Positions 1,326 to 16,877 of a DNA stretch of 64,000 nucleotides are shown piece by piece. Made by a program: the position numbers and the translations under genes. How positions within the stretch are numbered: position 1 is the first letter of the stretch; every line of letters begins with the position of its first letter. The notes below the pieces were generated by a model. The model did no database searches, had not been told where the DNA came from, and saw only the letters and a program-made list of their open reading frames with translations. The DNA comes from Gammaproteobacteria bacterium (GTDB lineage Bacteria; Pseudomonadota; Gammaproteobacteria; Poriferisulfidales; GCA-002705445). The stretch is from positions 195,588-259,587 of the forward strand of contig JABGXU010000008.1 in NCBI GenBank assembly GCA_018675635.1, given 5' to 3'.

Positions 1326-2492
1326 ATGAATGGAAAAGTTTTTACTTCTGAGTCAGTTTCGGAGGGACACCCAGATAAGTTATGCGATCAGGTTTCTGAT
1401 GCAATATTGGATGCAGCTCTAAAAGAAGATAAGAAAGCAAGAGTTGCTTGTGAAACACTAGTTAAATCAGAGAAAGATTCTCTTGGTGTGGTTGTTCTTG
1501 GTGGTGAAATTACAACTTCCGCAAATATTAATTACGAAGAAATTGTAAGAAAAACAATAGATGAAATTGGTTATAATTCGAAAGAATTAGGTTTTGATTC
1601 TAAAACGGTTGAATTTATAAATAAAATTGGCTTGCAATCAACAGATATAGCGCAAGGTGTTGATAGAAACAATGATGAAGATCAAGGCGCAGGTGATCAA
1701 GGTTTAATGTTTGGATATGCTAACAATGAAACAGATGTTCTTATGCCTGCACCTATAACTTATTCACATAGATTAGTTCATAAACTAGCTACATTGAGAA
1801 AGAATAAAGATGTTAATTGGTTAAGACCAGACGCTAAAAGCCAAGTAACTTTTAAGTATGATTCTAATAAAATACATTCTATTGATACGATAGTTATTTC
1901 AACACAACATTCCCCAGAAGTTAATCAAAAAGATATTAAAGATTATGTATATGAGCAAGTTATAAAAAAAGTATTACCTTCAAAATATCTTAATAAAGAA
2001 ACAATAATTCATGTAAACCCAACAGGATCATTTGAAATTGGTGGGCCAGTAGGAGATTGTGGTCTTACTGGTAGGAAAATAATAGTTGATACATACGGGG
2101 GGATGGCTCGACATGGTGGCGGAGCTTTTTCAGGCAAAGATCCTTCAAAAGTTGATAGATCGGCAGCTTATGCTGCTAGATATGTAGCTAAGAATATTGT
2201 TGCGGCAGGATTAGCGGAAAAATGTGAAATCCAAGTGTCTTATGCGATTGGGGTTGCAAAACCTACTTCGATAAGTGTAGATACATTTGGTACTTCAAAA
2301 GTTGATGAATCTAAAATTGTACAAATTATTAATGAGGTTTTTGACTTGCGTCCATGGGGTATAATTAATATGCTAGATTTATTAAAACCTATCTATAGAG
2401 ATACTGCTTCATATGGGCATTTTGGTAGAAGTGATCTCGAACTTTCTTGGGAAAAGATTGATCAAGTAGAAAGAATAAAAAGTTTAATTTAA
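1326..2492 (+). CDS. metK: S-adenosylmethionine synthetase
   Basis: Full-length MetK with GHPDK, the [27 protein letters not shown] signature and a [10 protein letters not shown] loop. Confidence 0.95.
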
Positions 2493-2503
2493 TGGAGTAG
2501 AAA

Positions 2504-3814
2504 ATGAGCGAAGTAGTAGAAAAAATAGGACCAGATTATAAAGTAGCAGATATCTCTTTAGCTGATTGGGGTCATAAAGAAATGAGTATAGCTGAAACTG
2601 AAATGCCTGGTTTAATGGCTCTTAGAGAAAAACATGGTAAGGCTAAACCATTAAGTGGAGCAAAAATAGTAGGTTGTCTTCATATGACAATACAAACCGC
2701 AGTTCTTATAGAAACTTTAGTGGAACTTGGAGCAAGTGTTAGATGGTCATCATGCAATATATATTCAACACAAGATCATGCCGCCGCCGCAATTGCAGAA
2801 AAAGGAATACCTGTATTTGCATGGAAAGGAGAGACTGAGGAGGAGTATTTGTGGTGTATAGACCAAACAATTATAGGCAATCAATCATGGAAGCCTAATA
2901 TGATTTTAGATGACGGTGGTGATTTAACTTCAATAATGCATGAGAAATATCCTGAATTATTGTCCGAAGTTAAAGGCTTATCTGAAGAAACAACAACGGG
3001 TGTTCATCGCCTACATGAAATGGTAAAAAAAGATGCACTTAAAGTGCCGGCATTTAATGTAAATGACTCTGTTACAAAATCAAAATTTGATAATTTATAC
3101 GGATGCAGAGAATCTTTAGTTGACGGCATAAAAAGAGCTACTGATGTAATGATATCCGGGAAAACTGCATTAGTTTGTGGTTTTGGTGATGTTGGCAAAG
3201 GATCTGCTCAATCATTAAGAAATGCTGGAGCAATTGTATGGGTTACAGAAATTGATCCAATTTGTGCTCTTCAAGCTGCTATGGAAGGTTTTAAGGTTGT
3301 TACTATAGAATCTGTTGCATCAGAAGTTGACATTTTTGTAACAGCAACAGGAAATGCGTCTATTATTTCGTATACTCATATGAATAAAATGAAAGACCAG
3401 GCTATAGTTTGTAATATTGGCCATTTTGATAATGAAATAGATGTTGAATCAATAAAAGATTGTAAGTGGGATAATATAAAACCACAAGTTGATCATATTG
3501 AGTTTCCAGATGGCAAAAAGATTATATTGTTGGCAGAAGGAAGATTAATAAATTTAGGATGTGCAACTGGGCATCCAAGTTACGTTATGTCTGCTTCATT
3601 CACAAATCAAGTTTTAGCTCAAATAGAATTATGGGAAAACGCAAAAAAATATAAAAATGAAGTATATGTTTTACCTAAACTATTAGATGAAGAAGTTGCT
3701 AGATTACATCTTGATAAAGTTGGGGCAAAATTAACTAAACTTACAAAAGATCAAGCAGAATATATAAGTGTAGACCAAGATGGCCCTTATAAGAATGATA
3801 CATATAGATATTAA
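2504..3814 (+). CDS. ahcY: adenosylhomocysteinase
   Basis: Carries the [14 protein letters not shown]-terminus and an NAD-binding GxGxxG ([10 protein letters not shown]). Its 436 aa length fits SAHH, and it forms a metK-ahcY pair. Confidence 0.95.
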
Positions 3815-3821
3815 TTAAGTA

Positions 3822-4559
3822 GTGCGTTTAATAAGATTATATGTTGAAGAATCATTAAATGTTAATACTTCAGTTTTTTTAAAAAAAAATTCTTACCATT
3901 ATTTAGTTAAAGTACTTAGGATAAAAGAAAACCAAAAGATTGTTTTATTTGATAATTCTGGATATGAATATTTTGGTTATGTAAAAAATATTAACAATAA
4001 ATATTTTGAAATTTTTATAGAGAAAAAAAATTACATAGAGAGAAATTTTTCAAAGGTAGAAATCGCTTTTAGTATTTGTAAAAACCCGTGCTCTGATCTT
4101 ATTATACAGAAACTTACAGAGCTTGGAATTGATTCAATACAGCCAATAATTTCAAAAAATTCAATCTTTAATCAAAAAAAATTAGATGTAGAAAAAAAAA
4201 ATTCTCATTGGAAAAATATATCTATTAGTGCTTCTGAGCAATCTGAAAGATCATATTTACCTATTATAAAAAAAATAATTTCTTTCCAGGATTATTTAGA
4301 AAATAATTCGTCTGATCAAAAAATCATTTTAGATACTAGAGTAAACGCAATGTTATCAGAAGTATTTAATAGAAAATTTAAATCATGTTCTTTGTTGGTT
4401 GGGCCAGAAGGTGATTTCACTTCTGAAGAATATGAATATGCTAAAGAACTGAATTTTTCATCAGCAAGTTTAGGTGGTAATATCTTGAGAGTTGAAACAG
4501 CAGTTATTGCGGCCTTTTCATATATTAATATACTTACTAATAGTGATAAATATGAATAA
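3822..4559 (+). CDS. rsmE: 16S rRNA (uracil1498-N3)-methyltransferase RsmE, GTG start
   Basis: The N-terminus MRLIRLYV matches E. coli MRIPRIY. A GPEGDFTSEE motif is present near the C-terminus, and the gene sits upstream of gshB as in E. coli. Confidence 0.85.
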   Translation: MRLIRLYVEESLNVNTSVFLKKNSYHYLVKVLRIKENQKIVLFDNSGYEYFGYVKNINNKYFEIFIEKKNYIERNFSKVEIAFSICKNPCSDLIIQKLTELGIDSIQPIISKNSIFNQKKLDVEKKNSHWKNISISASEQSERSYLPIIKKIISFQDYLENNSSDQKIILDTRVNAMLSEVFNRKFKSCSLLVGPEGDFTSEEYEYAKELNFSSASLGGNILRVETAVIAAFSYINILTNSDKYE

Positions 4560-12942: not shown

Positions 12943-13541
12943 TGATAAGAAAAGATTTTAAAATAATATCTGATTGGATAAAAAAAGATTCAACTGTTTT
13001 AGATTTAGGTTGTGGTGATTCAACCTTGCTTGAATATTTAAAAATAAATAAAAATATTTCTGGTTATGGATTTGAAAAAGATATTAATAAGGTTCAAGAG
13101 TCTATAAAAAAAAATATTAATGTAATACAAGCAGATTTTAATGTTGGTTTGGCAAAATATTTTAATAGTAACTTTTTTGATTACGCAGTTATGACTCAAG
13201 CACTTCAAGAAAACAAGAACCCAAATCATATAATTTTAGAAATGTTAAGGGTTGCAAGAGAAGGTATTGTAACTTTCCCCAATATGGGATTTTGGAAAAA
13301 CAGGTTTCAACTTGGTTTTCTTGGACGTATGCCAGTATCAAATTCATTGCCAAATAATTGGTTTGATACCCCAAATATTCATTTGTGTACTTTTAATGAT
13401 TTTGAAAAACTTTGTGGAGATTTAGAAATTATTATTTTAGATAAGAAAGTTTTAAATAATAATTATTCCACTAATTTTCTACTTAAAATATTTCCTAATT
13501 TTTTTGGGGAAATAGCTTTATATCGTTTTAAGAAAGATTAA
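12942..13541 (+). CDS. metW: methionine biosynthesis protein MetW
   Basis: A methyltransferase-like VLDLGCGDSTLLEYL motif is present, the start overlaps the metX stop, and the metXW pair is conserved. Confidence 0.85.
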   Translation: MIRKDFKIISDWIKKDSTVLDLGCGDSTLLEYLKINKNISGYGFEKDINKVQESIKKNINVIQADFNVGLAKYFNSNFFDYAVMTQALQENKNPNHIILEMLRVAREGIVTFPNMGFWKNRFQLGFLGRMPVSNSLPNNWFDTPNIHLCTFNDFEKLCGDLEIIILDKKVLNNNYSTNFLLKIFPNFFGEIALYRFKKD

Positions 13542-13973
13542 TTATTTTGTTTTAATTTTTGCCTTAATAAAATCAGTATGACTTAAATGCAGTAATTCTG
13601 ATATTTTTCTAATTCTGTGTTCTTCATGTTTATCAATAATATTATCAACTCTTGCTATTTTCCAAGCCATATTAAGTATTGTTTTTTTCTGTGTATTAGT
13701 AAATTTATCGTTAATTAATTTAATGTACTTTCTAAGACAATTAATGTTCTTATGTAATTCTTGTGCTTCAGCAGTTACCCATTTAGCTTTTTCTTTGTCT
13801 AAATTATATTCTTTTTCAATTAGATTGACTATAGATCTAATTTCAATTTCACTAATTTTAAAGTCAGCATAGCTAACTTCTATTAAAATTATTGCACAAG
13901 CGATGTTAATATCACTTATTGGATCAATATTCTCTGGTGCTTTTTTAAATATTTTTTTTATTAGATTTAGCAT
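13542..13973 (-). CDS. TerB-like (tellurite-resistance TerB family) small protein
   Basis: Two helical half-repeats show the TerB pattern: AIILIEVSYADFKISEIEIRSI and ILNMAWKIARVDNIIDKHEEHRI. It diverges from the downstream cassette. Confidence 0.5.
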   Translation of the reverse strand: MLNLIKKIFKKAPENIDPISDINIACAIILIEVSYADFKISEIEIRSIVNLIEKEYNLDKEKAKWVTAEAQELHKNINCLRKYIKLINDKFTNTQKKTILNMAWKIARVDNIIDKHEEHRIRKISELLHLSHTDFIKAKIKTK

Positions 13974-14082
13974 AATTTATGATATTTTATCATTAATAGA
14001 ATATATAATTTTAATTTTTTCAATATCATTGATAATTTCATTATTAAGATATAAAGTAACATAAAATAATTTTTGATAAATT

Positions 14083-14481
14083 ATGACTAATTATACGGAT
14101 AAAGAATTTATGTACATAACAGAAACTGTTATGAGGATTTTAGATACTTGGAACCTTACAACCCAGCAAATGGTTTTAGTTATAGGACTTCCAACTCAAA
14201 CTAAGAAAAGACAGCTAGATAAATTCAGATCTCTAAAAGCTTTTCCAAAGGATGATCTAATTATAAAAAGGCTAAGTCATATAGTAGGAATATCTGATGC
14301 ACTACGAACTTCATTTCCAAGAAATGAAAATATGTCAGAAAAATGGTTAAAAACACAACATAGGAGATTTGATAATGAGACCCCTTTGTCTGTTATATTG
14401 GAGCAAGGGGTGGATGGACTATGTAAAGTAAGATCTGAATTAGATTGCACTTTTGCATGGGATACATCTGTACAAATTTAA
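14083..14481 (+). CDS. small protein whose C-terminus resembles the Xre/MbcA/ParS antitoxin toxin-binding domain (DUF2384)
   Basis: The C-terminus SEKWLKTQHRRFDNETPLSVILEQGVDGLCKVRSELDCTFAW fits the DUF2384 pattern W-L-x-x-x-N-x-x-l-x-x-x-TPl-x-x-l-x-x-x-x-G-x-x-x-v-x-x-x-L-x-x-i-x-x-g. Its 132 aa length is typical of the family. It lies 12 nt upstream of the SET gene. Confidence 0.5.
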   Translation: MTNYTDKEFMYITETVMRILDTWNLTTQQMVLVIGLPTQTKKRQLDKFRSLKAFPKDDLIIKRLSHIVGISDALRTSFPRNENMSEKWLKTQHRRFDNETPLSVILEQGVDGLCKVRSELDCTFAWDTSVQI

Positions 14482-14493
14482 TCAATTAATATT

Positions 14494-15006
14494 ATGAAAA
14501 AACTTTACACAATAAAAAATTCAAAATTACATGGAAAAGGGTTATTTGCTAATTGCAACATAAAAGCCGAAACAAATATTGTTGAGTACGTTGGTGAAAA
14601 AATAACAAAAGCACAATCAGAGAAAATATCTGATATACAACTAAAAAAATCTCAAAAAAATAAAGATGAAGGGCAAGTATATATTTTCACATTAAATAAT
14701 AAATATGATATTAACGGCAATGTAAATTATAACAAAGCTAGATTAATGAATCATTCATGTAATTCTAATTGTGATACCGATATAATTGATAATAAAATTT
14801 GGATAAGATCGTATAAAGATATTAAGAAAGGTGAAGAATTGACATATGATTATGGTTTTACTTTTGATAAAGATGATTTTAGAGATCACATTTGTAAATG
14901 TGGGTCAAGAAAATGTGTAGGATTTATTGTAACTGAAACAGACTGGAAAAAGCTAAGAAAGTTTCTGTTAAAGCTAGCTAAAAATTGTTTAAAAACTAAC
15001 GAATAA
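14494..15006 (+). CDS. SET-domain protein-lysine N-methyltransferase (compact, with post-SET Cys motif)
   Basis: All SET signatures are present: GKGLFA (GxG), NHSCNSNC (NHSCxPN), EELTYDYG (ELxxDY) and a post-SET CKCGSRKC. A 170 aa SET-only protein is typical of bacterial and chlamydial SET proteins. Confidence 0.85.
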   Translation: MKKLYTIKNSKLHGKGLFANCNIKAETNIVEYVGEKITKAQSEKISDIQLKKSQKNKDEGQVYIFTLNNKYDINGNVNYNKARLMNHSCNSNCDTDIIDNKIWIRSYKDIKKGEELTYDYGFTFDKDDFRDHICKCGSRKCVGFIVTETDWKKLRKFLLKLAKNCLKTNE

Positions 15007-15655
15007 ATTTTTTTGAAAAGCAAGAAACGTTATTTATTGAAGTATAATTTTCTACTATTTGTTTTTCTTTTTTTGAATCCGGATAATTTATCGAGATAAG
15101 ATTTTTAATACCATTTTTTTCAGCAAATTTTAAAACATTTTCATTATCATCAATAAAGAATGTTTTTTCTTTATTATAAATTATATTTTTATTTAATATA
15201 TTCCAAAAATTTTCCGTCTCTTTGGCATACCCATAATCATGAGATGAAATTATTTTATTAAAATACCCCCATAATTTAGACTGTGTAATTTTAATATTTA
15301 GCATTTCTCTTGGGCAATTAGTTATTAGAACTGTATTAATCTGATTTTTTTTTAGAGTTTTAAGGAATTCTATTGTGTTAGGAAGCACTGAAATTTTGTC
15401 TTTGGTATTTAATATTTCTGATTTTAAATTAATGTTCAAAATATTACTCCAGTAATTTATGCTGTACCATTCAATAGTACTTTTTTTCTCCATATACATG
15501 CCTTCAAGTATTATTTTTGCTTCTGCAAATGTTGTTTTTTCTATTTTAGAATATAAATTTGGAATATGCTCATGCCAAAAATAGTTGTCATATGCTAGAT
15601 CAAGTAATGTTCCATCCATATCTAAAAAAAACGTTTCTATTACGCCCCATTTCAT
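14996..15655 (-). CDS. yrfG: HAD-family GMP/IMP nucleotidase YrfG
   Basis: FLDMDGTLLDLAYDNYFWHEHIP aligns closely with E. coli YrfG LLDMDGTLLDLAFDNYFWQKLVP, and WYSINYWS matches WYCLDYWS. Confidence 0.8.
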   Translation of the reverse strand: MKWGVIETFFLDMDGTLLDLAYDNYFWHEHIPNLYSKIEKTTFAEAKIILEGMYMEKKSTIEWYSINYWSNILNINLKSEILNTKDKISVLPNTIEFLKTLKKNQINTVLITNCPREMLNIKITQSKLWGYFNKIISSHDYGYAKETENFWNILNKNIIYNKEKTFFIDDNENVLKFAEKNGIKNLISINYPDSKKEKQIVENYTSINNVSCFSKKFIR

Positions 15656-15692
15656 CTACTCTATTCCTACATTAGTTATTTATTTGATATAT

Positions 15693-16877
15693 ATGATAAC
15701 AGAAAAAAAATATACAGCTTTGGTAAACCTATTATTACAGGTACTGTTTGTTGGTATTTTGCTTGGGTTATTTAGAACTGCTATTCCAGCATTATCAGAA
15801 AGTGTTTTTTTAGTCCCTAAAAATTCATTTATATTTTTATCTACTTTTATTATTGCTTTTGGGATCATTAAGGGAATTGCTAATTATTATGCTGGTGTTT
15901 TTGCTGATAAATATAATAGAAAAACTGTTCTATTATTAGGTTGGTTAGTAGCATTTCCAGTTCCTTTTATAATTTATTTTGCTACAAATTGGTATTACAT
16001 AATTTTAGCCACATTTATTATTGGCATTAATCAAGGGCTAACCTGGTCAGTGACACAAATTTCAAGTGTAGATATTACAAAAAATGAGAATAGAGGATTT
16101 ATTGTTGGGTTAAATGAATTTTCTGGATATTTTGGTGTTGCTATTGGAGGTATTTTAGTTAGTTATATGACATCTTTACTTACAGTAAAAATAGCTTTAT
16201 TTCTTTTTAGTATAATATTTATTTTAATAGCTACTTTATATTGTATATTTTTGGTTAAAGAAACAAAAAGCTATGCAAACATAGCATTTGGTAAAAATCC
16301 AAAAAACGTTTTTTTATATGTAACATGGACAAATAAAAAATTATTTGCTTATTCTCAGGCAGGACACATTGAAAAATTTGTTGATACTTGTATATGGATC
16401 TTCTTCCCTGTTTATTTGTTTAATAACGGTGTAACTTTAATTGAAATTAGTTACATAGTTGGTACATATACTTTTACTTGGGGGATTTTTCAAATTTTCA
16501 CGGGTTTGTATTCTGATTATGTGGGAAGAAACTTATTAATTATATCAGGAATGTTAATTTGTTCTATTGTACTTCCATTATGTTTATTAAGTCTTGAATT
16601 TAGTTGGTGGATGACGTGTAGTTTTTTTCTTGGTTTGGGTATGGCTCTTTTATATCCGTCAATAAGCTCTGCTGTTAATGATAATTGTGATGATAGTTGG
16701 AGAGCTTCTGCAATTGGTATATATAGATTTTGGAGGGATACCGGTTATGCTACAGGAGCATTAGGATTAGGCATAGTAACAAGTTTAGTAAACATTGAGG
16801 CTGGCTTTATTTTTGTTTCTTTCAGCATGATATTGTCAACTTTAATTTTAATTTTTACTTTAAAAAAATATAGTTAG
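15693..16877 (+). CDS. MFS transporter
   Basis: About 12 predicted TM segments and the MFS loop motif GVFADKYNRKTVLLLG. The start was moved to ATG 15693 to avoid the overlap with yrfG. Confidence 0.7.
   Translation: MITEKKYTALVNLLLQVLFVGILLGLFRTAIPALSESVFLVPKNSFIFLSTFIIAFGIIKGIANYYAGVFADKYNRKTVLLLGWLVAFPVPFIIYFATNWYYIILATFIIGINQGLTWSVTQISSVDITKNENRGFIVGLNEFSGYFGVAIGGILVSYMTSLLTVKIALFLFSIIFILIATLYCIFLVKETKSYANIAFGKNPKNVFLYVTWTNKKLFAYSQAGHIEKFVDTCIWIFFPVYLFNNGVTLIEISYIVGTYTFTWGIFQIFTGLYSDYVGRNLLIISGMLICSIVLPLCLLSLEFSWWMTCSFFLGLGMALLYPSISSAVNDNCDDSWRASAIGIYRFWRDTGYATGALGLGIVTSLVNIEAGFIFVSFSMILSTLILIFTLKKYS

Follow-up and report, generated by a model that had tools for sequence, protein, structure and literature searches.

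A stretch of 64,000 nucleotides from a marine gammaproteobacterium (contig JABGXU010000008.1; this whole stretch is called the window, and positions refer to it unless a locus label precedes them) carries a gene for a SET-domain protein of 170 amino acids (aa), and the question that this locus raises is whether such an enzyme serves the bacterium itself or is directed at a eukaryotic host. A preliminary description of the window, made from the DNA letters alone, took the protein for a eukaryote-like SET protein in a small AT-rich genome, proposed a host-associated or otherwise specialised lifestyle, and suggested that the protein may be a host-directed effector. It also named two findings that would speak against the proposal, namely a phylogenetic position among the SET proteins of free-living bacteria and the loss of catalytic residues. 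Our analysis leads to a different answer: taken as a whole statement, the SET protein is probably a cytoplasmic lysine methyltransferase of a free-living planktonic bacterium, acting on an endogenous target.

The SET gene is an ATG-to-TAA open reading frame (ORF), and proteins exactly identical to its product are stored in GenBank as MBT7543410.1 and MBT7603818.1 (678-kb contig of a metagenome-assembled genome, MAG). Pfam assigns residues 14-121 to the SET family PF00856 with a score of 82.9 bits (E = 2.5e-23; cutoff 22.4), and the match spans the profile at full length (positions 1-105). A phmmer search against all PDB chains matched 117 distinct sequences, at the top of which are the SET and post-SET domains of KMT2D, KMT2A, KMT2C and yeast Set1 (E values of 8e-20 to 1e-18); the KMT2 alignments extend through ELTYDY and the post-SET CxCxxxxC. 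In an alignment of 40 homologues, with a lowest identity of 51%, residues H13, G16, Y63, N86, H87, S88, C89, C93, E115, Y118, D119, Y120, C134 and C136 are invariant, and C141 and G14 are conserved in at least 90% of the sequences. The motifs of the protein also include G14-K-G16 and V62-Y-I-F65. According to Dillon et al. (2005; cited in PMC3980110), residues of the N86 and H87 type bind the cofactor and a residue of the C89 type is the fourth post-SET zinc ligand. All four zinc ligands (C89, C134, C136 and C141) are present and conserved. In the phmmer alignment, Y118 corresponds to MLL1 Y3942, which is the Phe/Tyr-switch position of the MLL1, DIM-5 and SET7/9 literature.

An AlphaFold2 (AF2) model built on the alignment of 40 homologues (predicted local distance difference test, pLDDT, 85.3; predicted template modelling score, pTM, 0.76) gave 357 PDB matches in Foldseek at E <= 1e-3. 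The best of these are the SET domains of MLL1, MLL3 and MLL4 (template modelling score on the query, TMq, 0.61-0.71; identity 30-34%), and NSD and SETD2 are also near the top. The protein genuinely belongs to the SET-domain lysine methyltransferase superfamily by every criterion of sequence and of modelled structure. Judged from its residues, it is very probably an active enzyme of this kind. In these respects the preliminary description holds: Pfam, the alignment and AF2/Foldseek agree on a 170-aa SET protein with every catalytic signature and the post-SET Cys cluster, the nearest solved structures are indeed eukaryotic (the KMT2/MLL SET domains), and a loss of catalytic residues was not seen.

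Beyond the post-SET region, the model ends in a basic amphipathic helix, for which there is no counterpart in the matched KMT2 SET-domain chains, which stop at the post-SET. Residues W150 and K153 of this helix are kept in the gammaproteobacterial, SAR11-type and phage copies considered below, and many cluster representatives as well as the phage copies align up to query residue ~160. The C-terminal tail contains 7 Lys and Arg residues versus 3 Asp and Glu residues. The conserved basic helix may serve in docking to the substrate or to nucleic acid.

The exact SET protein is found in at least 40 sample blocks, each time in the same gene context, and nine species-level genomes in GTDB, all of uncultured marine Gammaproteobacteria, have copies that are 81-86% identical to it. 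Two MAGs were assembled from Tara size fractions of 0.22-3 µm (run ERR598965) and 0.22-1.6 µm (run ERR599095), and other sources include a seawater single-amplified genome (SAG) and water-column MAGs from Saanich Inlet and the Mediterranean (Gammaproteobacteria-LRMED-300). The clade is not evidently part of SAR86, which has a GC content of 31-40% and whose isolate study does not list the SAG and MAG identifiers; the Mediterranean study labels its SAR86 and Pseudothioglobus MAGs as such, but not this one. Because the sources are small-size fractions of seawater, a SAG and water-column MAGs, the carrier is a free-living, genome-streamlined planktonic marine gammaproteobacterium. The preliminary description was right about the small AT-rich genome, as the GC content of the window is 29.0% and contigs of related genomes reach 1.06-1.15 Mb, among them JBJKYB010000002.1 with 1.06 Mb and JAYQIN010000002.1 with 1.11 Mb, but these traits reflect oligotrophic streamlining, as in SAR11 and SAR86, and not host dependence. 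All of the 58 window ORFs that were scanned are housekeeping or unassigned. They include metK, ahcY, gshB, pyrBC, proC, metXW, aroQ, accBC, purHD, rho and RNase PH, together with tkt-gap-pgk-pyk-fba and coxABC/ctaA, that is, methionine, proline, purine and pyrimidine synthesis, glycolysis and an aa3 oxidase. The supposed host-associated lifestyle finds no support either in the planktonic sources or in this biosynthetically complete and aerobic gene content.

Within this group, the SET gene behaves as a core gene. The order metX-metW-TerB-DUF2384-SET-HAD-MFS is the same in all nine species-level genomes, and a relative whose SET is 66% identical (L011, 237-kb contig) has the identical gene order around SET. 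Nei-Gojobori estimates between the window and eight of the nine species were obtained for these seven genes. The nonsynonymous divergence (dN) is lowest for SET, at 0.095, under that of metX (0.106), and is followed by metW (0.118), MFS (0.123), DUF2384 (0.155), TerB (0.282) and HAD (0.299); synonymous sites are saturated at the locus genes (proportion of synonymous differences, pS, 0.64-0.76). Because its dN is the lowest of the seven and its synteny is conserved, SET behaves as a constrained, syntenic core chromosomal gene, unlike an arms-race effector.

The wider family is large and mostly distant. HMMER, run against 1.84 billion cluster representatives, retrieved 7,486 proteins at E <= 1e-3 and only 43 at E <= 1e-30. 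The next relatives of the window SET are Pelagibacterales-type proteins of 55-64% identity (one is so named by NCBI) from loci of 25-26% GC, whose gene context differs but is itself conserved (Wzy_C-SET-...-rhodanese-HhH-GPD-SCP2). The identity to Burkholderia, Xanthomonas and human KMT2 sequences is 34-36% each. We constructed a neighbour-joining tree from 152 shared columns and 53 taxa with 100 bootstrap replicates. The gammaproteobacterial clade is supported at 100%, its union with a second group labelled 'gamma2' at 96%, the SAR11-type clade at 98%, the union of the gammaproteobacterial and SAR11-type sequences at 86%, the phage clade at 99%, and the separation of all prokaryotic and phage sequences from human KMT2A/D at 86%. 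In this tree, the window SET nests with the SET proteins of free-living plankton, not with eukaryotic or Burkholderia (BtSET-like) proteins. Note that the tree was built without the characterized effector sequences (LegAS4/RomA and others), in place of which the NCBIfam LegAS4 model was used; among the top 60 PDB matches of the window SET and of the Burkholderia SET, LegAS4/RomA does not occur.

The same subfamily is carried by genuine marine phages. Although tblastn of the window SET against the cultured phage genomes of INPHARED gave no match, nine uncultivated viral contigs of IMG/VR (L028-L036; 15-89 kb) encode a SET and post-SET protein of 162 aa, which is 42-45% identical to the window SET over residues 1-160. 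In one of them (L030), only 3 nt separate the SET gene from an upstream DnaB-like helicase gene (phrog_19), whose product is 52% identical to that of the Pseudomonas jumbo phage PA5oct; genes for a DNA primase and for a carbamoyltransferase, the latter an auxiliary metabolic gene, also adjoin the SET gene. The phage SET stands beside replication genes and therefore points to targets inside bacterial cells. In addition, phages offer a vehicle for the transfer of SET between plankton lineages.

The habitat and the core-gene behaviour bear directly on the substrate: since the carrier is free-living and the gene belongs to the core, the substrate is most likely an endogenous bacterial protein. We propose that a small, stand-alone SET enzyme would act in the cytoplasm and methylate the epsilon-amino group of protein lysines with S-adenosylmethionine (SAM) as the methyl donor. 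With Tyr118 at the Phe/Tyr switch, it is predicted to stop at mono- or dimethylation. The gene itself is vertically inherited, strongly constrained and chromosomal. As a leading guess, the substrate would be an abundant basic protein associated with nucleic acid, either in the nucleoid or in the ribosome and translation. Precedents for endogenous substrates of prokaryotic SET proteins are cpnSET, which acts on Hc1, and Go1-SET, which acts on MC1-alpha (PMC3980110). The retention of the gene under purifying selection in planktonic genomes of ~1.1-1.3 Mb and its capture by phages argue for an important endogenous substrate.

Several points weigh against this reading. No neighbour or domain fusion that points to a substrate recurs across lineages at the sampled SET loci. 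Secretion systems were looked for in only 64 kb of a genome of ~1.1 Mb. BtSET and BaSET are small SET proteins that have been reported to be secreted, BaSET without a recognizable signal, so that small size and the lack of a signal are compatible with export and do not exclude it for the window SET either. Finally, the proposed class of substrate, nucleoid or ribosome, is drawn by analogy, and we hold it only tentatively, as rather unlikely to be the right one.

A broader idea would be that housekeeping protein-lysine methylation operates in those free-living ocean bacteria whose genomes are the most streamlined (the window clade, the SAR11-type group and possibly HIMB59) as an endogenous nucleoid or translation mark. 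In the window clade, this mark might be modulated by the DUF2384 protein encoded next to SET, and marine phages would rewrite it during infection with a SET copy of their own. We regard this idea as improbable; if true, it would constitute a bacterial analogue of chromatin-mark writing that is kept under extreme gene loss. The literature that we found refers to SET genes of streamlined marine bacteria only in passing, in one HIMB59 figure legend. What remains of interest in this locus is the role of SET methyltransferases in host-free bacteria, and cultured SAR11 strains with their methyl-lysine proteomes are a practical place for a substrate hunt.

Table 1. Coordinates of the SET gene, its motifs, its neighbours and the related loci mentioned in the text
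Feature	Position	Strand	Basis
Gene of the SET + post-SET lysine methyltransferase (170 aa; stop codon within the coordinates)	14494..15006	+	Pfam, PDB, AF2/Foldseek
GxG AdoMet-binding motif H13-G14-K15-G16, SET-domain start	14530..14541	+	alignment of 40 homologues
N86-H-S-C-N-S-N-C93 (NHSCxPNC motif)	14749..14772	+	alignment of 40 homologues; aligned to NHSC of KMT2A/D
Codon 91 (Ser)	14764-14766		alignment of 40 homologues
E115-L-T-Y118-D-Y120 (ELxYDY motif; Y120, catalytic Tyr)	14836..14853	+	alignment of 40 homologues; aligned to ELTYDY of KMT2A/D
Post-SET zinc cluster C134-K-C136-G-S-R-K-C141	14893..14916	+	alignment of 40 homologues; aligned with KMT2A post-SET
Basic amphipathic helix of the C-terminus (residues 148-168), DWKKLRKFLLKLAKNCLKT	14935..14997	+	AF2 model; alignment of 40 homologues
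DUF2384 / Xre-MbcA-ParS antitoxin-fold gene (132 aa)	14083..14481	+	PF09722 27.9 bits; AF2 + Foldseek
HAD-family GMP/IMP nucleotidase-like gene, convergent	14996..15655	-	ORF coordinates; Pfam HAD_2; NCBIfam PRK14988 171.6 bits
metK and ahcY	1326-3814	+	
~100-aa DUF2384-partner ORFs	L018:3153-3440, L021:3161-3448, L023:3202-3498, L025:3175-3504		
CxxCxxCC (YkgJ-like) protein gene of the sister lineage	L018-L022, ~4007-4447	+	
Phage SET gene	L030:4004-4492	+	
SET gene of JAYQIN010000002.1	L009:6001-6511		tblastn
Bacteriorhodopsin-family gene	L011:7681-8436		
Two SET paralogues, Pelagibacterales-type	L012:1421-1912, L012:2660-3148		
Two SET paralogues, groundwater	L037:1043-1573, L037:3501-3992		
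H-NS family gene, Burkholderia savannae plasmid	L026:1216-1536		
TerB-family gene, Xanthomonas sacchari	L027:5899-6444		

The alternative that survives best, which we nevertheless consider quite unlikely, is a two-gene module of the antitoxin-like type, in which the DUF2384 protein would bind, regulate or neutralize SET, and SET would take the slot of the RES/ART toxin in Xre-RES, MbcTA, ParST and NatRT. The DUF2384 gene is on the same strand as SET and ends 12 nt before its start codon; the two genes are probably co-transcribed. This adjacency holds for all nine species (L001-L009) and for every contig with the exact SET protein. The DUF2384 product matches PF09722 (Xre_MbcA_ParS_C) above the cutoff of 24.5 and scores 25.3 against an NCBIfam Xre_ParS cutoff of 90. 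Its AF2 model (pLDDT 89.4) gave full-length Foldseek matches only to antitoxins of RES-type toxins, namely NatR (template modelling scores 0.74/0.85), MbcA, VPA0769 and Xre. No RES or ART toxin gene was found beside it by Pfam or NCBIfam: SET is downstream, and TerB, on the other strand, is upstream.

The distribution of the two genes, however, argues against such a module. In a sister lineage (39-40% GC; L018-L022), DUF2384 occupies the same syntenic spot, a 95-aa ORF precedes it, and the slot between it and the HAD gene contains a 138-aa CxxCxxCC (YkgJ-like) protein instead of SET. Therefore, either SET was gained at this slot or the CxxCxxCC gene was replaced there. Outside the window clade, DUF2384 usually forms a conserved two-gene unit, again lacking a RES toxin, with an upstream ORF of 95-109 aa, which is 55-62% identical across three lineages, has no Pfam match, and is absent from the window. 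In total, DUF2384 occurs without SET in L018-L025, and SET occurs without DUF2384 in L010-L015, in L028-L042 and in the Burkholderia and Xanthomonas loci; in SAR11-type bacteria, in phages and wherever else SET loci were sampled, DUF2384 is lacking. We thus rejected DUF2384-SET as a general module, since the adjacency is limited to the window clade and DUF2384 is partnered differently elsewhere. Furthermore, toxin-antitoxin pairs are typically mobile, whereas both of these genes belong to the conserved, syntenic core; PADLOC gave no defence-system match for SET, DUF2384 or TerB; and in the literature we found no paper that mentions both SET and DUF2384 or links them. A functional link between the two is unsupported.

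The DUF2384 gene deserves a remark of its own. Twenty-four positions of its product are invariant across lineages, and the upstream ORF of ~100 aa may represent an undescribed partner family of this orphan antitoxin-fold protein. The sister lineage also has two insertions near TerB, namely genes for HU and for a YccV-like protein.

Less probable still, to the point of being very unlikely, is the effector reading of the preliminary description, here framed as a SET protein exported into a eukaryotic cell, for example of a host or a grazing protist, where it would methylate histones as LegAS4/RomA, NUE, BtSET and BaSET do. It is true that the nearest solved structures are those of eukaryotic H3K4 methyltransferases, that the characterized bacterial SET proteins are mostly nucleomodulins, some of them small or without a signal, and that the window SET has a weak local match to the NCBIfam LegAS4/AnkI model NF043024. 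That match, however, scores only 24.7 bits, where the cutoff is 550, and covers profile positions 32-140 of 439, and the protein contains no ankyrin repeats, nuclear localization signal (NLS) or LegAS4-type architecture, since Pfam finds SET only. With regard to a route of export, no secretion-system component was found among the 58 scanned ORFs of the window, and the first beta-strand of the model, at residues 5-9, puts the start of the SET fold at residue 5; with no N-terminal extension, the protein lacks the space for a signal at that end, whereas C-terminal signals for a type IV secretion system (T4SS) were not scorable. The similarity to KMT2 also fails as an argument for targeting. A soil Burkholderia SET matches KMT2A with 83 bits, as against 71-75 bits for the window SET, and because of this higher score the likeness is no sign of targeting or of recent eukaryotic origin; it is a generic trait of small bacterial SET and post-SET proteins. 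The free-living source, the core syntenic position, the lowest dN of the seven genes, and relatives in SAR11-type bacteria and phages also speak against the effector. The placement of the window SET among free-living bacterial proteins, in a tree without the characterized effectors, is the first of the two contrary findings named in the preliminary description. That a bacterial genome is small and AT-rich is no reason to read a SET domain in it as a nucleomodulin.

A recent horizontal gain of a KMT2/SET1-type domain from a eukaryote is highly improbable. The best PDB matches are KMT2/SET1 at 30-36% identity, which favours such a gain, but the KMT2 value of 36% equals the 34-35% to Burkholderia and Xanthomonas and lies far under the 55-86% to marine bacterial and the 42-45% to phage copies. 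KMT2 is set apart from the prokaryotic and phage sequences by 86 of the 100 bootstraps, the family comprises thousands of cluster representatives (7,486 at E <= 1e-3), the GC content and synteny of the gene are native, and the literature now leans to a prokaryotic origin of SET. An inactive or non-methyltransferase SET-fold protein, such as a binding module, has just as little to recommend it, because S91 does replace the near-invariant Pro of NHSCxPNC (Pro in at least 90% of the 40 homologues) but lies at a non-catalytic position, and the cofactor, catalytic and zinc residues are invariant in those homologues while dN is very low.

We return to the surroundings of the gene. On the downstream side, the 3' ends of the SET and HAD genes overlap by 11 nt, and the convergent HAD gene bounds the SET transcription unit. 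In positions 13500-15800, promoter-like sites were no commoner than in shuffled sequences and no terminator was found, both scans being of low information in such AT-rich DNA. In addition to SET, the window contains several genes of SAM metabolism: metK (SAM synthetase) adjoins ahcY (S-adenosylhomocysteine hydrolase) ~10 kb upstream of SET, a proximity from which no link is implied, and the other SAM-dependent methyltransferases are cmoB-like, rsmE, metW, Methyltransf_28 and Methyltransf_11. A TerB-family gene lies ~2.5 kb from SET in Xanthomonas sacchari. A linkage between TerB and SET was considered and rejected as probably a coincidence, because TerB stays put in the sister lineage that lacks SET. 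In L011, a bacteriorhodopsin-family gene is found 3 kb downstream of the SET locus, which fits planktonic life in the photic zone; no rhodopsin gene was found among the scanned ORFs of the window.

Other SET loci vary considerably. The contexts in the groundwater, archaeal-looking and betaproteobacterial-type loci have nothing in common. Domain fusions were tried as a clue to function, and SET was found joined to flavodoxin, MnmA, Rdx, GNAT, CinA, Ham1, HhH-GPD and MraW; these eight partners are unrelated to one another, and the fusions most likely arose where gene calling on metagenomes ran adjacent genes together, so we discarded them as uninformative. Two SET paralogues occur within a few kb of each other on a Pelagibacterales-type contig of 444 kb and on a groundwater contig, and one protein of 352 aa (P0251) is a tandem double SET. 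In another (P0025; 176 aa, from an ENA contig of 1153 bp), the N-terminal two-thirds are of the gammaproteobacterial type and the C-terminal third is of the phage type (…KQYPCTCG…VREGSRWRI…), so that the protein must be a recombinant or else a chimera of the assembly. On the long-read MAG contig JAYQIN010000002.1, tblastn matched the SET gene in two overlapping pieces, with an apparent frameshift near codon 19 that is probably a homopolymer assembly error. On a plasmid of Burkholderia savannae, the region 1.5 kb upstream of SET holds a gene of the H-NS family, an anecdotal observation.

Finally, we compare the locus with the closest known systems. The DUF2384 neighbour resembles the antitoxins Xre, ParS, MbcA and NatR in its all-helical fold over the full length and in its Xre_MbcA_ParS_C domain, but differs from them in that no RES/ART toxin adjoins it, in its NCBIfam score (25.3 vs 90), and in being highly conserved and syntenic. 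The SET protein shares the SET catalytic domain with LegAS4/RomA, NUE, BtSET and BaSET, of which BtSET and BaSET are also small. These nucleomodulins, however, belong to host-associated pathogens, are delivered by type III secretion systems (T3SS) or T4SS, and have NLSs and, in LegAS4/RomA, ankyrin repeats, whereas the window SET has a free-living carrier, no extra domains and no secretion genes in the window; it shows neither the host association nor the LegAS4 architecture of secreted nucleomodulins.

With the KMT2/MLL/SET1 enzymes (PDB 2w5z, 7w67, 4z4p and 6chg), the window SET shares GxG, NHSCxPNC, ELTYDY with the switch Tyr, and CxCx4C, at an identity of 30-36% and a template modelling score of ~0.7. 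KMT2 enzymes are large multidomain proteins activated by WDR5-RbBP5-ASH2L-DPY30; the window SET, in contrast, consists of SET and post-SET within 170 aa, without multidomain context or WRAD/COMPASS partners and with the added C-terminal helix, and the window revealed no histone gene. In terms of function, the favoured model is that of cpnSET (Chlamydia pneumoniae; Hc1/Hc2) and Go1-SET (Methanosarcina mazei; MC1-alpha), small prokaryotic SET proteins to which the window SET may be analogous, although no homologue of Hc1 or MC1 was identified here.

The closest likeness is to the stand-alone SET methyltransferases of environmental bacteria, surveyed by Alvarez-Venegas in 2007 and 2014 (PMC3980110), for which NCBI uses the product name 'SET domain-containing protein-lysine N-methyltransferase'. 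Like these, the window SET has a single SET and post-SET unit of ~140-170 aa with all motifs, encoded on a chromosome or megaplasmid of a non-pathogen. The marine subfamily differs from the Burkholderia and Xanthomonas proteins in being only 34-35% identical to them and in its extra basic C-terminal helix, and from other environmental SET proteins in being kept in extremely streamlined plankton genomes and in marine phages. With these particularities, the window SET belongs to the recognized set of stand-alone bacterial SET proteins of environmental bacteria.

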